64,000 nt of DNA, from assembly GCF_013167455.1 (NCBI RefSeq), contig NZ_CP038328.1; one strand, 5' to 3'. The DNA comes from Escherichia coli O157:H7. Its GTDB lineage: Bacteria > Pseudomonadota > Gammaproteobacteria > Enterobacterales > Enterobacteriaceae. How positions within the stretch are numbered: position 1 is the first letter of the stretch; each line of letters begins with the position of its first letter. Both the position numbers and the translations under genes were made by a program. This document shows positions 2 to 13,037 of this stretch, one piece after another. The notes below the pieces were generated by a model. That model did no database searches, was not told where the DNA came from, and saw only the letters and a program-made list of their open reading frames with translations.

Positions 2-1147
2 CTCGATGCCAGCGACTGTGAAGTATTAATGTCAGGTATTGCCGACGGTATTAACTCGGAAAATGCATTCTTATCCGTAAATGGGGGAGAGCCAGCACCG
101 CTGGCTCACCACAGCTACGAAGGTGCATTGAAGGCAATTGCATTTGAACTGGAAAAACGGAATTTAAATGACAGCGTGGCCTTAATTGGCCACCGCATCG
201 CTCACGGCGGCAGTATTTTTACCGAGTCCGCCATTATTACCGATGAAGTCATTGATAATATCCGTCGCGTTTCTCCACTGGCACCCCTGCATAATTACGC
301 CAATTTAAGTGGTATTGAATCGGCGCAGCAATTATTTCCGGGCGTAACTCAGGTGGCGGTATTTGATACCAGTTTCCACCAGACGATGGCTCCGGAAGCT
401 TATTTATACGGCCTGCCGTGGAAATATTATGAAGAGTTAGGTGTACGCCGTTATGGTTTCCACGGCACGTCGCACCGCTATGTTTCCCTGCGCGCACATT
501 CTTTGCTGAATCTGGCGGAAGATGACTCCGGCCTGGTTGTGGCGCATCTTGGCAATGGCGCGTCAATCTGCGCAGTTCGCAACGGTCAGAGTGTTGACAC
601 CTCAATGGGAATGACGCCGCTGGAAGGCTTGATGATGGGTACCCGCAGTGGCGATGTCGACTTTGGTGCGATGTCCTGGGTCGCCAGCCAAACCAACCAG
701 AGCCTGGGTGACCTGGAACGCGTAGTGAATAAAGAGTCGGGATTATTAGGTATTTCCGGTCTTTCTTCGGATTTACGTGTTCTGGAAAAAGCCTGGCATG
801 AAGGTCACGAACGCGCGCAGCTGGCAATTAAAACCTTTGTTCACCGAATTGCCCGTCATATTGCCGGACACGCAGCTTCATTACGTCGCCTGGATGGAAT
901 TATATTCACCGGCGGAATAGGAGAGAATTCAAGTTTAATTCGTCGTCTGGTCATGGAACATTTGGCTGTATTAGGCGTAGAGATTGATACAGAAATGAAT
1001 AATCGATCTAACTCTTTTGGCGAGCGAATTGTTTCCAGTGAAAATGCGCGTGTCATTTGCGCCGTAATTCCGACCAACGAAGAAAAAATGATTGCTTTGG
1101 ATGCCATTCATTTAGGCAAAGTTAACGCACCCGCAGAATTTGCATAA
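2..1147 (+). CDS. tdcD: Propionate/acetate kinase TdcD (5' truncated by window edge)
   Basis: Frame continues open upstream of the ORF-track start at 29 back to position 2 ([16 protein letters not shown]...); acetate-kinase-like sequence; position immediately upstream of tdcE as in the K-12 tdc operon. Confidence 0.88.
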
Positions 1148-1180
1148 TTTAGTTGAAGTATTGTAGAGAGATTATTTTTC

Positions 1181-3475
1181 ATGAAGGTAGATATTGATAC
1201 CAGCGATAAGCTGTACGCCGACGCATGGCTTGGCTTTAAAGGTACGGACTGGAAAAACGAAATTAATGTCCGCGATTTTATTCAACATAACTATACACCG
1301 TATGAAGGCGATGAATCTTTCCTCGCTGAAGCGACGCCAGCCACCACGGAATTGTGGGAAAAGGTGATGGAAGGCATTCGTATTGAAAACGCAACCCACG
1401 CGCCGGTTGATTTCGATACCAATATTGCCACCACAATTACCGCTCATGATGCGGGATATATTAACCAGCCGCTGGAAAAAATTGTTGGCCTGCAAACGGA
1501 TGCGCCGTTGAAACGTGCGTTACACCCGTTCGGTGGCATTAATATGATTAAAAGTTCATTCCACGCCTATGGTCGTGAAATGGACAGTGAATTTGAATAT
1601 CTGTTTACCGATCTGCGTAAAACCCATAACCAGGGCGTATTTGATGTTTACTCACCGGATATGCTGCGCTGCCGTAAATCTGGCGTGCTGACCGGTTTAC
1701 CAGATGGCTATGGCCGTGGGCGCATTATCGGTGACTATCGCCGCGTAGCGCTGTATGGCATCAGTTATCTGGTGCGTGAACGCGAACTGCAATTTGCCGA
1801 TCTCCAGTCTCGTCTGGAAAAAGGCGAGGATCTGGAAGCCACCATCCGTCTGCGTGAGGAGCTGGCAGAGCATCGTCATGCGCTGTTGCAGATTCAGGAA
1901 ATGGCGGCGAAATATGGCTTTGATATCTCTCGCCCGGCGCAGAATGCGCAGGAAGCGGTGCAGTGGCTCTACTTCGCTTATCTGGCGGCAGTGAAATCAC
2001 AGAACGGCGGCGCGATGTCGCTGGGCCGCACGGCATCGTTCCTGGATATCTACATTGAGCGCGACTTTAAAGCTGGCGTACTCAATGAGCAGCAGGCACA
2101 GGAACTGATCGATCACTTCATCATGAAGATCCGTATGGTGCGCTTCTTGCGTACGCCGGAATTTGATTCGCTGTTCTCCGGCGACCCAATCTGGGCGACG
2201 GAAGTGATCGGCGGGATGGGGCTGGACGGTCGTACGCTGGTGACCAAAAACTCCTTCCGCTATTTGCACACCCTGCACACTATGGGGCCTGCACCGGAAC
2301 CTAACCTGACCATTCTTTGGTCGGAAGAATTACCGATTGCCTTCAAAAAATATGCCGCGCAGGTGTCGATCGTCACCTCTTCCTTGCAGTATGAAAACGA
2401 CGATCTGATGCGTACTGACTTCAACAGCGACGATTACGCGATTGCCTGCTGCGTCAGCCCAATGGTGATTGGTAAGCAAATGCAGTTCTTTGGTGCACGC
2501 GCTAACCTGGCGAAAACACTGCTGTACGCAATTAACGGCGGGGTGGACGAGAAGCTGAAGATTCAGGTCGGGCCGAAAACGGCACCGTTGATGGACGATG
2601 TGCTGGATTACGACAAAGTGATGGACAGCCTCGATCACTTCATGGACTGGCTGGCGGTGCAGTACATCAGCGCGCTGAATATCATTCACTACATGCACGA
2701 CAAGTACAGCTACGAAGCTTCGCTGATGGCGCTGCACGATCGTGATGTCTATCGCACCATGGCGTGCGGCATCGCGGGCCTGTCGGTGGCAACGGACTCC
2801 CTGTCTGCGATCAAATATGCCCGCGTGAAACCAATCCGTGACAAAAACGGCCTGGCGGTGGACTTTGAAATCGACGGTGAATATCCGCAGTACGGCAACA
2901 ACGACGAGCGCGTAGACAGCATTGCCTGCGACCTGGTTGAACGTTTTATGAAGAAAATTAAAGCGCTGCCAACCTATCGCAACGCCGTCCCTACCCAGTC
3001 GATTCTGACTATCACTTCTAACGTGGTGTACGGCCAGAAAACCGGTAACACGCCGGACGGTCGTCGCGCCGGAACACCGTTCGCGCCGGGCGCTAACCCG
3101 ATGCATGGTCGTGACCGCAAAGGTGCCGTGGCCTCATTGACGTCGGTGGCGAAACTGCCGTTCACCTACGCCAAAGATGGGATCTCGTACACCTTCTCAA
3201 TCGTCCCTGCGGCGCTGGGCAAAGAAGATCCAGTACGTAAAACCAACCTTGTCGGCCTGCTGGATGGGTATTTCCACCACGAAGCGGATGTCGAAGGCGG
3301 TCAACACCTCAACGTCAACGTAATGAATCGGGAAATGCTGCTGGATGCCATCGAGCACCCGGAAAAATATCCTAACCTGACAATCCGTGTCTCTGGCTAC
3401 GCCGTGCGCTTCAACGCACTGACCCGTGAACAGCAGCAGGATGTTATTTCACGTACCTTTACCCAGGCGCTCTGA
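1181..3475 (+). CDS. tdcE: 2-ketobutyrate/pyruvate formate-lyase, glycyl radical enzyme
   Basis: 764 aa ORF; C-terminal glycyl radical motif RVSGYAVRF and active-site Cys-Cys (IACCVSPM) visible in the translation; length equals K-12 TdcE. Confidence 0.93.
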
Positions 3476-8578: not shown

Positions 8579-9280
8579 CTAGACAGGCAAATCTATCAGC
8601 AAAGCGCGCAGTGGGGAATCGGCAACCAGCGTAATGTTAGCCTCGTCACGAATAAACGCCCCATCACCGCAGGTCAGCGCCGCTTTCTCTTCATGATGCG
8701 TAAGCGCATGAAATTTCCCGTGAATCGATTGCAAATACGTGCGTGGCCCATGCAACTGGAAATTCGCACTTTCGCCTTTGTCGAGCACGATATGGTGCAG
8801 CCACACTTGCTGGCGTAATTGCAGGCTTCCCATCGCACCCTCTGGCGAGGCGATTAAATGCTGCTTGCCCATATTAAGCGCCAGTTTTTGAATCAGCGGA
8901 TTCTCTCGCTGCGGGCAGGCGTCCAGCCAAAGCTGCATTCGTGTTAACGGTTTGTCTTTGCTGAGATTGTGTTCGCTGTAGCTGACACCCGGCTGGGTAG
9001 AGAGCAGCAACGCCTCACCGGCGCTGGCCTGAACATGATTGCCTTCGCTGTCGCGATACTCTGCTTCTCCATCCAGAATCACATTTAAAATATCGACTTT
9101 GGGATAGGTTCGCGGCTGAAAGGCGGCACCTGGGGCCAGCACTTCCTGGTTAAGCACACGCAGGGAGGCATAGCCTAACAATTTCGGGTCGAAGTAGTGT
9201 CCAAAGGAAAAAGTATACCGGGCCTGCAACCATCCGTAGTCTGCTTGTCCACACTGCCTGGCAGTTCGGGTAGTAATCAT
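8579..9280 (-). CDS. yhaK: Pirin-like (cupin) protein YhaK
   Basis: 233 aa; divergent from LysR regulator yhaJ. Confidence 0.88.
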   Translation of the reverse strand: MITTRTARQCGQADYGWLQARYTFSFGHYFDPKLLGYASLRVLNQEVLAPGAAFQPRTYPKVDILNVILDGEAEYRDSEGNHVQASAGEALLLSTQPGVSYSEHNLSKDKPLTRMQLWLDACPQRENPLIQKLALNMGKQHLIASPEGAMGSLQLRQQVWLHHIVLDKGESANFQLHGPRTYLQSIHGKFHALTHHEEKAALTCGDGAFIRDEANITLVADSPLRALLIDLPV

Positions 9281-9384
9281 AATTCTTGACCTCTCTTTAC
9301 TTCCTTTTATGGTAAGGGGCTGGACGCTACATTGTTAGCCAGATATTCTGCCCGGTATGTTCAAATTTCCTGAATGAGAACGAA

Positions 9385-10281
9385 ATGGCCAAAGAAAGGG
9401 CATTAACGCTGGAAGCACTACGGGTTATGGATGCGATCGATCGCCGGGGCAGTTTTGCGGCGGCAGCGGATGAGCTGGGACGCGTGCCTTCCGCACTTAG
9501 CTACACCATGCAAAAACTGGAAGAAGAGCTGGATGTGGTGCTGTTTGACCGCTCGGGCCATCGCACCAAATTCACCAATGTCGGGAGGATGTTGTTGGAG
9601 CGAGGGCGCGTTTTGCTGGAAGCCGCAGATAAACTGACTACTGATGCGGAAGCTCTCGCGCGCGGTTGGGAAACGCATCTCACCATTGTGACCGAAGCGC
9701 TGGTACCGACACCTGCCTTTTTCCCGTTAATCGACAAACTGGCGGCAAAAGCCAATACCCAACTGGCAATCATCACAGAAGTGCTGGCGGGGGCGTGGGA
9801 ACGGCTGGAGCAGGGGCGGGCGGATATTGTTATCGCGCCGGATATGCATTTTCGTTCCTCGTCGGAGATCAACTCGCGCAAGCTCTATACGTTAATGAAC
9901 GTCTACGTTGCCGCGCCTGATCACCCGATTCATCAGGAGCCGGAACCGTTATCTGAAGTGACGCGTGTGAAATATCGTGGAATTGCGGTGGCGGATACCG
10001 CTCGTGAGCGCCCGGTGTTGACTGTACAGCTGCTGGACAAACAGCCGCGCTTAACGGTGAGCACGATTGAAGATAAACGTCAGGCATTACTGGCGGGGCT
10101 TGGCGTGGCGACGATGCCGTATCCGATGGTCGAAAAAGATATTGCGGAAGGGCGGTTGCGTGTCGTCAGCCCGGAATCGACCAGCGAGATCGATATTATT
10201 ATGGCCTGGCGTCGTGACAGTATGGGGGAAGCGAAATCCTGGTGTCTGCGGGAAATTCCCAAACTTTTTAACGGAAAATAA
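9385..10281 (+). CDS. yhaJ: LysR-family transcriptional regulator YhaJ
   Basis: 298 aa; N-terminal HTH (LRVMDAIDRRGSFAAAADELGRVPSALSYTMQKLE) typical of LysR family. Confidence 0.9.
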   Translation: MAKERALTLEALRVMDAIDRRGSFAAAADELGRVPSALSYTMQKLEEELDVVLFDRSGHRTKFTNVGRMLLERGRVLLEAADKLTTDAEALARGWETHLTIVTEALVPTPAFFPLIDKLAAKANTQLAIITEVLAGAWERLEQGRADIVIAPDMHFRSSSEINSRKLYTLMNVYVAAPDHPIHQEPEPLSEVTRVKYRGIAVADTARERPVLTVQLLDKQPRLTVSTIEDKRQALLAGLGVATMPYPMVEKDIAEGRLRVVSPESTSEIDIIMAWRRDSMGEAKSWCLREIPKLFNGK

Positions 10282-10297
10282 TATTTATTATTGTTAA

Positions 10298-10321
10298 TAA
10301 AAAGGGGCGAAATATCGCCCC
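10298..10321 (-). terminator. Rho-independent terminator of yhaI
   Basis: GGGGCGA-AATA-TCGCCCC hairpin with T-run on the minus strand; lies between convergent yhaJ and yhaI. Confidence 0.55.
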
Positions 10322-10331
10322 AATTCTAAGA

Positions 10332-10688
10332 TTAATTTGAACCAAACTTCGGATCGTTTCCGTAACGATTGCTGCCAGAAGTACCTTCTGTGCAGAAAAA
10401 AACCAGAAGCACGAGCCAGCCAATAAACGGAACAAAAAAGAGCAAGGCCCAGGCACCTGAACGGTCGGTATCGTGTAAGCGACGGATAGCAAGCGCAAGG
10501 ACGGGAAGGAAGGTTGCCAGCAAATAAAGCATAGACAGATATGGAAGCTCCAGACCTAAAATCAATTGAATGACATTGATAATAGCGCCGACGATGGCGT
10601 TAATCAGAGTAAACATCCAGTACTCTTTACGACGTGCGCGACCAGAGAAACCAACATAATTTTTTAATACGGATAAATACCACTGCAT
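10332..10688 (-). CDS. yhaI: DUF805 inner-membrane protein YhaI
   Basis: 118 aa; shares YLxVLKNYVGFxGRARRKEYWMF and RRLHDTDRS motifs with adjacent yhaH. Confidence 0.85.
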   Translation of the reverse strand: MQWYLSVLKNYVGFSGRARRKEYWMFTLINAIVGAIINVIQLILGLELPYLSMLYLLATFLPVLALAIRRLHDTDRSGAWALLFFVPFIGWLVLLVFFCTEGTSGSNRYGNDPKFGSN

Positions 10689-10882
10689 AAAAACATCCCT
10701 TTAATTAAAAGTGACGAAAGTCTATTCCGGGTATTGTGTAAATGCTATTCGTATCTTTCTTTTTCGGATGTTATAAAGGTTTTGATATTTAAGATAAATA
10801 CATGGTTATTTTTATAGGTAATTTATATAACGACATTGAAATATTTTAAATAAACATTAGTAAATTATTCATTCATCAACAT

Positions 10883-10914
10883 GATGATAAAAGCCGGATG
10901 AGTCAGACATCCGG
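10883..10914 (-). terminator. Rho-independent terminator of yhaH
   Basis: CCGGATG-N7-CATCCGG hairpin followed by CTTTTATCAT on the minus strand, 15 nt downstream of the yhaH stop. Confidence 0.5.
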
Positions 10915-10928
10915 CGAGCAGATTTGTT

Positions 10929-11294
10929 TTAAGGTTCCAGTTTTGGATCAGGTCCAAAGCGGTTTTCGCCTGGCGTACCCGCCTGGCAGTTAAAGACGAT
11001 GATAATAAGCCAGCCGATAAACGGGATTAAGAATAGCAGTGCCCACCACGCCGAGCGGTCGGTGTCGTGCAGGCGGCGGAACTGAACTGCCCACCACGGT
11101 AAAAACACCAGAATACCGTAGATTGTCGTCAGGATGCCTTCGCCACCAGCGCGTTGCCAGCCTAACATTTTATCCAGCAGCCCCAGCACGAACGTAAAGA
11201 TGATGTTGACCAGAATAAACATCCAGTACTCTTTGCGCCGCGCACGACCCCGGAAACCGACATAATTTTTTAGTACTTTCAGATACCAGTCCAT
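10929..11294 (-). CDS. yhaH: DUF805 inner-membrane protein YhaH
   Basis: ORF track starts at a TTG (11315); ATG at 11294 gives MDWYLKVLKNYVGF..., 121 aa as in K-12. Confidence 0.85.
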   Translation of the reverse strand: MDWYLKVLKNYVGFRGRARRKEYWMFILVNIIFTFVLGLLDKMLGWQRAGGEGILTTIYGILVFLPWWAVQFRRLHDTDRSAWWALLFLIPFIGWLIIIVFNCQAGTPGENRFGPDPKLEP

Positions 11295-11435
11295 TTTTGC
11301 CTCAATTTTGCTCAATCACTTGTTTTTAAAGCAGCAAATTAAGAATAGACGTGAATGAAATGGCAGTAAATATTCGTTCAAGGAATTAATAAAGTGCTGT
11401 GAAGGCGCGCTAAGACTGATGACAAGCGCAAAATT

Positions 11436-11533
11436 GCCAGATGCGCTACGCTTATCTGGCCCGCGCGGTCATTGCAACATATTGAATATAAAAGTTTTGT
11501 AGGTTTGATAAGGCGTTCATGCCGCATCCGACA
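11436..11533. repeat. REP palindromic elements
   Basis: GCCAGATGCGCTACGCTTATCTGGC and GTAGGTTTGATAAGGCGTTCATGCCGCATCCGACA REP-type palindromes. Confidence 0.65.
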
Positions 11534-11585
11534 TGAACAACATGCACTTAGCTAATTATCAGAGGCACCTCGTAAGGTGCTTTTT

Positions 11586-12572
11586 TTAACCTAAGCGAAC
11601 ATCTCGTCCATGCGGTTCATCGAGATCCTGCCACGGACCAATTGAAATAATCCGCGTAGGGTTGATGGTCTTATGACTGCGGAAGTAATGATTACGGATA
11701 TGATCGAAATTGACTGTTTCGGCAATTCCCGGCATCTGGTAGATATCACGCAGGAAGCCATACAGATTAAGGTAATCGCTGATGCGGTGCTTATCACACT
11801 TGAAGTGGGTCACATACACTGGATCAAAACGGACCAGCGTGGTCCACAGGCGAATATCGGCTTCGGTTAGCTGGTTGCCGGTCAGGTAACGATGCTGACC
11901 TAAAATCTGTTCCAGTCGCGCCAGCGATTCAAACACTTTCTCCACCGCTTCGTCGTAGGCTTGCTGGCTGGTGGCAAAACCAGCTTTATACACGCCGTTG
12001 TTAACGGTGTCATAAATCCAGCCGTTAAGTTCGTCAATTTTCGTTTGCAGGGCTGGTGGGTAGTAATCACCCGCTTTCGCGCCCAGCGCATCAAACGCGG
12101 TATTAAACATGCGGATGATTTCTGCTGATTCGTTGCTGACGATGGTGTGGTTCTTTTTGTCCCACAGCACGGGAACAGTAACTCGTCCGCTGTAGTGTGG
12201 ATCGGCGTGGAGATAAAGCTGATACAAAAATTCATGTTGATAGAGCGTGTCTCCGGTTGCTCCCGGAAAACTGTCATCAAAGGTCCAGCCGTTTTCCAGC
12301 ATCAGCGGGTTCACTACGGAAACGGAAATAAACGGTTCCAGTCCTTTGAGTTTGCGCATGATCAGCGTGCGGTGCGCCCACGGGCAGGCGAGTGAAACAT
12401 AGAGATGATAACGATCTTTCTCTGCGATAAAACCGCCTGTGCCAGTGGGGCCAGGAGCGCCATCGGCAGTGAGCCAGTTACGAAATGCGGAAGCTGAACG
12501 TTGAAATTTACCGCCGGTAGATTTGGTATCGTACCAGGTGTCATGCCAGACGCCGTCAATCAGTTGACCCAT
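11586..12572 (-). CDS. yqjG: Glutathionyl-hydroquinone reductase (Xi-class GST) YqjG
   Basis: ATG at 12572 (MGQLIDGVWHDTWYD...) with GGAGGA RBS; CPWAHR active-site motif present; 328 aa. Confidence 0.9.
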   Translation of the reverse strand: MGQLIDGVWHDTWYDTKSTGGKFQRSASAFRNWLTADGAPGPTGTGGFIAEKDRYHLYVSLACPWAHRTLIMRKLKGLEPFISVSVVNPLMLENGWTFDDSFPGATGDTLYQHEFLYQLYLHADPHYSGRVTVPVLWDKKNHTIVSNESAEIIRMFNTAFDALGAKAGDYYPPALQTKIDELNGWIYDTVNNGVYKAGFATSQQAYDEAVEKVFESLARLEQILGQHRYLTGNQLTEADIRLWTTLVRFDPVYVTHFKCDKHRISDYLNLYGFLRDIYQMPGIAETVNFDHIRNHYFRSHKTINPTRIISIGPWQDLDEPHGRDVRLG

Positions 12573-12591
12573 TGTTCTCTCCTCCAATAGC

Positions 12592-12620
12592 AAAAACGAG
12601 GAGCTTCCTCCTCGTTTTTT
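12592..12620. terminator. Bidirectional hairpin terminator downstream of yqjF
   Basis: AAAAACGAGGAG-CTTC-CTCCTCGTTTTTT perfectly symmetric hairpin flanked by A and T runs. Confidence 0.6.
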
Positions 12621-12641
12621 ATCGTTAAGTATAGCGCGTGC

Positions 12642-13037
12642 TTACCACTTTTTATTCAGCAGGCGGTCGATGCTATACGCGCCCGGACCGGTAATTGCCA
12701 GCAGCAGGAATCCGCCAGAAATTGTCAGGTTTTTCATGAACATCAGCGAGTTGACGCCTTCAGCAAAGTTGCTGTGAAATAAAAATGCCGTCAGCAGCGT
12801 AAAGCCCGCAGTAAACAGGGCTGTGGTGCGAGTCAGGAAACCGAACAGGATTGCCAGACCACCACCAAACTCAAGCAGAATCACCAGCGGCAGCATAAAA
12901 CCCGGGACGCCCATCGCTTCCATATATTGTTGGGTACCCGCGTAACCAGTAATTTTTCCCCAGCCTGCGGTAATAAACAGAATCGGCATTAAAATGCGCG
13001 CTACCAGTACACCAACATCTTCTAATTTTTTCATCAT
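12642..13037 (-). CDS. yqjF: DoxX-family inner-membrane protein YqjF
   Basis: Trimmed from the 160 aa ORF to the MMKKLEDVGVLV... start with GGAGAG RBS; about 130 aa. Confidence 0.85.
   Translation of the reverse strand: MMKKLEDVGVLVARILMPILFITAGWGKITGYAGTQQYMEAMGVPGFMLPLVILLEFGGGLAILFGFLTRTTALFTAGFTLLTAFLFHSNFAEGVNSLMFMKNLTISGGFLLLAITGPGAYSIDRLLNKKW

Follow-up and report, generated by a model that had tools for sequence, protein, structure and literature searches.

yhaH and yhaI in Escherichia coli O157:H7: a conserved and a variable gene for small DUF805 proteins

Introduction

The system closest to the locus described here is the gene pair yhaH (b3103) and yhaI (b3104) of Escherichia coli K-12, which encodes two proteins of the Pfam family PF05656 (DUF805). 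It is flanked by yqjF and yqjG on one side and by yhaJ, yhaK and yhaL on the other side. The 2024 y-ome review counts both among the uncharacterised genes. YhaH fused to GFP localises to the membrane (PMC3225971).

Data on regulation come from three studies. In EHEC, Ler activates yhaI 36-fold, and yhaI alone of the pair; the authors predicted all Ler-activated genes to be repressed by H-NS (PMC3891560). In K-12, overproduction of CpxR induces yhaI 3.2-fold on arrays and 40.3-fold by qPCR, and yhaH 1.9-fold (PMC2731931). According to the same study, many new Cpx targets have no CpxR box and might be affected indirectly (PMC2731931). The sRNA SdsR represses yhaH, a validated target, in Salmonella, where the YhaH protein rises towards stationary phase (PMC5137417). 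The separate regulation of yhaH and yhaI is already published.

Two regulons are suited for comparison. Like the H-NS-silenced, Ler-activated EHEC genes (LEE operons, lpf, stcE), yhaI has AT-rich upstream DNA, and its activation by Ler is comparable to that of the LEE genes in the same experiment (PMC3891560). Unlike them, the yhaI locus is not part of a mobile element or pathogenicity island, and no connection of yhaI with type III secretion is known. With the small envelope proteins of the Cpx regulon (spy, yebE, yccA), yhaI shares a predicted inner-membrane product and an approximately 40-fold qPCR response to CpxR overproduction that equals that of spy (PMC2731931). However, it lacks a perfect CpxR box and has a one-mismatch candidate 160 bp upstream.

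A further comparison concerns phages. Inner-membrane proteins can serve as host factors for phage genome entry, ManYZ for lambda and PtsG for HK97. YhaH resembles them as an inner-membrane protein whose loss blocks infection: yhaH loss-of-function mutants resist the phages PhiWec188 and PhiWec190, and complementation restores infection (bioRxiv 10.1101/2024.11.29.626071; PMC12695924). It differs in that the paper calls YhaH a 'receptor', and the phage data concern YhaH and none YhaI. This resistance is the only functional phenotype that was found in the literature search.

The locus and its genes

The window is a 64,000-nt stretch of E. coli O157:H7 DNA (contig NZ_CP038328.1). Its region 10200-11700 is 100% identical to many E. 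coli O157:H7 genomes, where RefSeq annotates yhaJ, yhaI, yhaH and yqjG. The two genes are the already annotated yhaH and yhaI, which are annotated in almost every E. coli genome. Their proteins are identical to those of a K-12-like strain, and the flanking genes are the same as in K-12. No difference to the K-12 pair was found in the window; what is added here is the population and cross-genus picture of yhaI. The following features were assigned:

10929-11294, minus strand: yhaH, 121-aa DUF805 inner-membrane protein, conserved 'core' copy (ORF, PF05656, RefSeq)
10332-10688, minus strand: yhaI, 118-aa DUF805 inner-membrane protein, the dispensable copy that evolves fast, present in the window as allele class A (ORF, PF05656, RefSeq)
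10689-10928, minus strand: AT-rich spacer of 240 bp with the presumed yhaI promoter (composition and published regulation)
10893-10915 (read 10915-10893), minus strand: yhaH intrinsic terminator, GCCGGATG-loop-CATCCGGC followed by UUUUAUCAUC (pattern scan)
10304-10321 (read 10321-10304), minus strand: yhaI intrinsic terminator, GGGGCGA-loop-TCGCCCC followed by UUUUUAUUAA (pattern scan)
10593-10688 and 11199-11294, minus strand: direct repeat of the first 96 nt of yhaI and yhaH, 78% identical at a spacing of 606 bp (repeat search, family D1)

A longer yhaH ORF that extends to 11315 with a TTG start was dismissed as a mechanical ORF call only. The two genes differ in composition: yhaI has a GC content of 44.5% and a GC3 of 45% versus 51.6% and 62% for yhaH. 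At the DNA level, the repeat is recognisable only in the first 96 nt, which encode the common N-terminal motif.

Some variation was observed at the yqjG side. The yhaH-yqjG intergenic region (11295-11585) shows 90-98% identity between strains and is more variable than its flanks. Over a part of its length (about 11413-11549), it matches a second intergenic site of strain SMS-3-5, located near yqjF, with 81% identity; this fits the REP-type repeats around yhaH mentioned in the y-ome paper. In E. coli KOr024 (locus L005, 3232-4000), a copy of IS26 lies directly next to yqjG and connects it with a truncated ptsP; yhaH, yhaI and all sequence beyond them on that side are missing from this strain.

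Two homologous DUF805 proteins

YhaH and YhaI align over their full length with 66 identities in 118 positions (56%), E = 7e-48 and one 4-residue gap (BLASTP). The two motifs that the earlier note on this DNA had described as common to both proteins occupy homologous positions in this pairwise alignment, the very check that the note had proposed with non-homologous motif positions as the outcome speaking against it. Homology outside the motifs is also seen, although the identity there is a little lower than the 'about 50%' previously estimated: a hand count from the alignment yields 36 of 86 columns, about 42%. Both proteins belong to DUF805. YhaI scores 111.3 bits with PF05656 (model positions 1-110 of 111) and YhaH 120.9 bits (1-111 of 111), compared to a gathering threshold of 25.7 bits. 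NCBIfam and PADLOC searches gave sub-threshold matches only.

In an alignment of 81 DUF805 sequences across phyla, 17 columns are invariant: M1, G16, R17, R20, E22, W24, F26, L28, P62, R69, R70, H72, D73, P87, N107, G110 and P113. They form the pattern GR..R.E.W before helix 1, RR.HD after helix 2, a proline in helix 3 and N..G..P in the tail. All 17 residues are present in YhaI, YhaH and the second allele class of YhaI (class B, see below).

Both gene products are small integral inner-membrane proteins with three hydrophobic helices. The confident AlphaFold2 model (pLDDT 90.9) comprises a short helix at the N terminus and three more at 20-44, 50-73 and 78-99, with a kink at P87 in the one at 78-99. 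The charged cluster among the invariant residues lies next to the start of helix 1 (G16, R17, R20, E22, W24) and the end of helix 2 (R69, R70, H72, D73). At these flanking positions, they should therefore lie on one membrane face, which is the cytoplasmic one according to the positive-inside rule. The protein would thus be a three-helix membrane bundle whose invariant charged cluster at the cytoplasmic face might be the functional site. A three-pass model with a cytoplasmic N terminus places the C-terminal tail in the periplasm, yet YhaH-GFP was screened among proteins with assumed cytoplasmic C termini (PMC3225971).

Neither structure nor gene context points to an activity. A solved structural relative or a significant fold match was not found. 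Among 80 unrelated DUF805 loci, no conserved gene neighbour was detected: 103 neighbours matched 138 Pfam families, each at most four times. The previous statement that the function of DUF805 is unknown stands, with both genes uncharacterised in the 2024 review.

Terminators, spacer and separate regulation

A GC-rich hairpin with a U tract is located 3' of each gene, as previously claimed. The yhaH terminator folds at -15.0 kcal/mol (z = -5.1), and none of 200 shuffled sequences folds as well. The yhaI terminator folds at -16.3 kcal/mol (z = -4.7) and lies inside the 50-bp gap common to yhaI and the convergent yhaJ. The description of the spacer as 240 bp long and AT-rich is likewise correct: its GC content is 28%, with a minimum of 24.5% over 200 bp, versus about 51-55% in the flanking genes. 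Since an Rfam scan of 9000-13000 at E <= 1 yielded a chance snoRNA match only, the spacer contains no known RNA. In E. coli XYEH3314 (locus L097, 832-1529), IS1 is inserted into the spacer, and both genes are intact; such an insertion occurs in some strains.

The promoter scan detected no consensus sigma-70 site in 10200-11700. Aligning the spacers of Citrobacter, Superficieibacter and Intestinirhabdus with that of E. coli revealed a conserved block only directly upstream of the yhaI start, and -10 and -35 elements could not be assigned with confidence in this alignment. One candidate operator was found by pattern search:

10850-10864, plus strand: CpxR-box-like candidate, ATAAACATTAGTAAA, one mismatch from GTAAA-N5-GTAAA

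One-mismatch matches to this box occur 73 times in the window compared to 43 expected. The candidate is considered a lead only, because such matches are common in AT-rich DNA.

Do the two genes form an operon? In that case, yhaI would be expressed by read-through, and the hairpin 3' of yhaH would act as attenuator or RNA stability element. Both genes are on the same strand at a distance of 240 bp, a consensus promoter is lacking in the spacer, yhaH is slightly induced (1.9-fold) together with yhaI, and 'yhaH yhaI yhaJ' have been listed as a putative unit (PMC2731931). However, yhaJ is encoded on the opposite strand, so this grouping was not based on transcripts. The yhaH terminator with its U tract is strong, CpxR overproduction induces the two genes with a 20-fold difference, Ler acts on yhaI only, and yhaI is intact in strains with IS1 between the genes. 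An operon is therefore improbable.

In contrast, separate regulation, which had been proposed as probable, is supported by the published differential data for Ler, CpxR and SdsR together with the terminators of both genes. The differential induction of yhaI in the literature implies that yhaI has its own promoter. According to the literature, yhaI is nearly silent, and Ler in EHEC or an excess of CpxR turns it on. The 28%-GC spacer might comprise a weak yhaI promoter under H-NS-type silencing that is relieved by Ler or Cpx. Published H-NS binding at the yhaH/yhaI locus was not found in the literature search. Taken as a whole, yhaH and yhaI are probably two monocistronic, independently controlled paralogues for small DUF805 inner-membrane proteins, and we hold this account of the locus with good confidence.

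The yqjG-yhaJ interval in other genera

The yqjG-yhaJ interval contains between one and four DUF805 genes in different Enterobacteriaceae:

Salmonella, Klebsiella pneumoniae, E. marmotae and Escherichia sp. E2562: yhaH only
Citrobacter amalonaticus and C. rodentium: yhaH followed by yhaI
Superficieibacter: four DUF805 copies, the second and third of which are the yhaH and yhaI orthologues
Intestinirhabdus: a single yhaI-type gene

The order is yqjG-yhaH-yhaI-yhaJ in C. amalonaticus and yhaH-yhaI-yhaJ in C. rodentium and Superficieibacter. The spacer of C. amalonaticus (216 bp, 30% GC) resembles that of E. coli. The outer two of the four DUF805 genes of Superficieibacter sp. (locus L094, 1269-3331) are only about 30% identical to YhaH and YhaI. 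The DUF805 gene of Intestinirhabdus alba (locus L093, 2501-2860) is 66% identical to YhaI and 52% to YhaH; here, the conserved copy, yhaH, appears to be the one that was lost. Outgroup loci from Salmonella, Klebsiella and other Escherichia were recovered by exact-protein look-ups. A scan of genome contigs with YhaI as query had its closest match in C. amalonaticus (63%) and none in Escherichia, Shigella, Salmonella or Klebsiella, even though the query patterns were derived from an E. coli protein.

An old tandem duplication had been proposed as origin of the pair. The synteny in Citrobacter and Superficieibacter supports it, but the phylogenetic tree does not provide sister support. An NJ tree built from 107 sequences supports the YhaH clade with 100% and the YhaI clade with 57% bootstrap and places the two clades next to each other; as exclusive sisters, however, they reach 18% only. 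The mean similarity of YhaI to DUF805 proteins from other phyla is 52% (up to 58% for a Bacillus protein) versus 54% to the YhaH clade. Tandem DUF805 pairs are present in six other unrelated loci of the 80 sampled, among them Hafnia and Sulfitobacter, whose pairs are sisters with 82% and 65% bootstrap, respectively. Local duplication is therefore a recurrent habit of DUF805. Since Salmonella, Klebsiella, E. marmotae, a cryptic Escherichia clade and 18% of E. coli lack yhaI, the pair does not represent an old feature fixed in this lineage. The copy numbers are consistent with an old tandem duplication and later gains and losses of copies. A duplication in an enterobacterial ancestor might have been followed by birth-and-death evolution that left one, two or four copies at the site.

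Unequal evolution of yhaH and yhaI

The two genes evolve at different speeds. YhaH is 83-89% identical to its orthologues from other genera (84% in Salmonella and Klebsiella), YhaI 59-66%. When E. coli is compared with C. amalonaticus, the identity is 86% for YhaH (dN 0.079) and 59-62% for YhaI (dN 0.31). These comparisons show an estimated amino-acid substitution rate of yhaI about four times that of yhaH. They also show yhaH to be the conserved copy, present in every yqjG-yhaJ interval examined except that of Intestinirhabdus, and yhaI to be the divergent copy, which by its distribution has been lost repeatedly.

Such a pattern could indicate a redundant copy that decays under relaxed selection, with its variability and losses reflecting ongoing pseudogenisation. 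In line with this, yhaI was lost in several genera and in 18% of E. coli, its dN is four times that of yhaH, and YhaI proteins frameshifted at a run of seven T (T7) are frequent among proteins from draft assemblies. However, the dN/dS of yhaI amounts to about 0.14 whether allele classes or genera are compared, all 17 invariant residues are intact in both allele classes, and yhaI is strongly inducible. In addition, the 60 nt surrounding the T7 run show any difference in just 73 of 2054 complete class-A genomes, so the frameshifts in drafts are probably homopolymer errors for the most part, or rare events. We consider decay quite unlikely; by its dN/dS, yhaI is still under purifying selection.

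The T7 run is located in the coding strand of yhaI at about 10393-10399 of the window, and the +1 and -1 frameshifts common in drafts yield YhaI proteins of 131 and 139 aa. A role of this run as phase-variation switch was rejected, as at most 3.6% of the complete class-A genomes differ there.

Three states of yhaI in E. coli

A count over 5426 complete E. coli genomes distinguishes three states:

yhaH and yhaI of class A (window, K-12, O157): 2080 genomes (38%)
yhaH and yhaI of class B (not named yhaI by PGAP): 2292 genomes (42%)
yhaH only, with a 41-bp stretch containing one hairpin that joins yhaH to yhaJ: 992 genomes (18%)

As far as the literature search went, this three-state variation is new. 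Among individual strains, K-12 and O157 have class A, O26 strain 97-3250 and SMS-3-5 class B, and ST131 strain ZH063 and M1/5 no yhaI. Judged by these strains, the three states seem to follow phylogroups. Two segments are involved:

10282-10933, no strand assigned: present/absent segment of 652 bp that spans the final two codons and the terminator of yhaH, the spacer, and yhaI together with its terminator
10381-10553, minus strand: dimorphic tract of yhaI, codons 46-103, encoding the second and third hydrophobic helices (allele comparison; L003 1682-1854, L002)

The dimorphic tract is sharply bounded: 53 of its 173 nt (31%) distinguish class A from class B, which hardly differ anywhere else, and the spacer and the flanking genes are 98-99% identical between them. 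In the tract, dS is 1.52 and dN 0.21, whereas the rest of yhaI has a dS of 0.026. A dS of 1.52 is as large as that of yhaH between E. coli and Salmonella (1.34). The 18 amino-acid replacements between the classes are mostly hydrophobic for hydrophobic. Recombinants between A and B exist (P0017). A search among 2456 YhaI homologues revealed no donor of either tract. The tract could be due either to introgression or to an old balanced polymorphism.

Two sources within the locus were considered and rejected. Gene conversion by yhaH does not explain the tract, whose nucleotide identity to yhaH is 54% for the A version and 49% for the B version. A recent conversion of the 5' ends was discarded too, with E. 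coli yhaI 65.2% identical to its own yhaH versus 64.4% to Citrobacter yhaH.

In Escherichia lacking yhaI, the 652-bp segment is replaced by the 41-bp stretch with its single hairpin (locus L001, 1583-1623). The junction was compared in E. coli M1/5, E. marmotae and Escherichia sp. E2562, and the exact single-gene junction is found in 992 of the 5426 genomes. The yhaH-only E. coli share with E. marmotae and E2562 not only the junction but also the ...KLEQE C terminus of YhaH. How did the genus arrive at two arrangements? The 652-bp segment may have entered a single-copy Escherichia locus by recombination from an enterobacterium with the tandem pair, which would be compatible with an older duplication elsewhere. 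One and the same yhaH-hairpin-yhaJ junction and C terminus in E. marmotae, E2562 and 992 E. coli genomes argue for such an import. The boundaries of the exchange in the last yhaH codons and at the yhaJ stop are those predicted for a homologous replacement. Furthermore, YhaI is more than 67% identical in no species outside E. coli and Shigella, and both yhaI and the spacer are AT-richer than their flanks, with the difference in GC3 noted above (45% versus 62% for yhaH). However, Citrobacter yhaI has an equally low GC content and an AT-rich spacer, so this composition may be a property of the gene instead of a mark of recent import. In addition, no donor was found, the nearest yhaI orthologues being 59-66% identical, and one ancient deletion allele, maintained or exchanged in the genus, could give the same pattern. 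Import from a tandem-bearing relative is thus a tentative explanation that we would not yet bet on. Concerning the direction of the change, we lean towards gain of the 652-bp segment by recombination over its loss from a part of E. coli.

Phages and DUF805

DUF805-like proteins are also encoded by phages. The phage 'moron' membrane-protein family phrog_12855 contains a DUF805-like region that matches YhaI at 7.8e-28, and the Stx phages 75/02 and POCJ13 each carry an ORF of this type. In contrast to the host pair, these proteins are just 34-36% identical to YhaI and YhaH, and their genes are located in the nin region on the opposite strand. The ORF in Shigella phage 75/02 Stx (locus L096, 3471-3860, plus strand), found in POCJ13 as well, is unannotated and comprises 129 codons with a TTG start; an internal Met would give 124 aa. 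Its orientation opposite to the nin-region genes is moron-like.

DUF805 proteins might act alone as oligomers in inner-membrane homeostasis and perhaps provide a conduit or docking site that some phages exploit for genome entry; this proposal is speculative and rather unlikely to be right as it stands. A reading that goes further, and that we regard as a long shot, makes DUF805 proteins inner-membrane entry factors in a phage-host conflict. The signatures of yhaI would then result from selection by phages or membrane-targeting agents, and the phage 'morons' might act on the same pathway, e.g. in superinfection exclusion. Under such a conflict, presence and absence, two ancient classes of transmembrane-helix alleles and fast evolution may be the signatures of a normally silent yhaI.

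Conclusions

On its own, the pair adds little, because its analysis re-identifies two annotated y-genes of a known family. What exceeds the routine is the nature of yhaI as an optional, dimorphic gene that evolves fast. A natural allelic series is available in E. coli, consisting of yhaH only, yhaH with class A yhaI and yhaH with class B yhaI. Known inducers (Ler, CpxR) and a selectable phenotype, the requirement of PhiWec188 and PhiWec190 for yhaH, make direct genetic tests possible. The sharply bounded 173-bp yhaI tract, which has diverged as much as between genera, is a clean and small case of mosaic or balanced variation in a chromosomal gene. Finally, the pair is a handle on DUF805, a family that is 50-60% identical across bacterial phyla and has no assigned activity.
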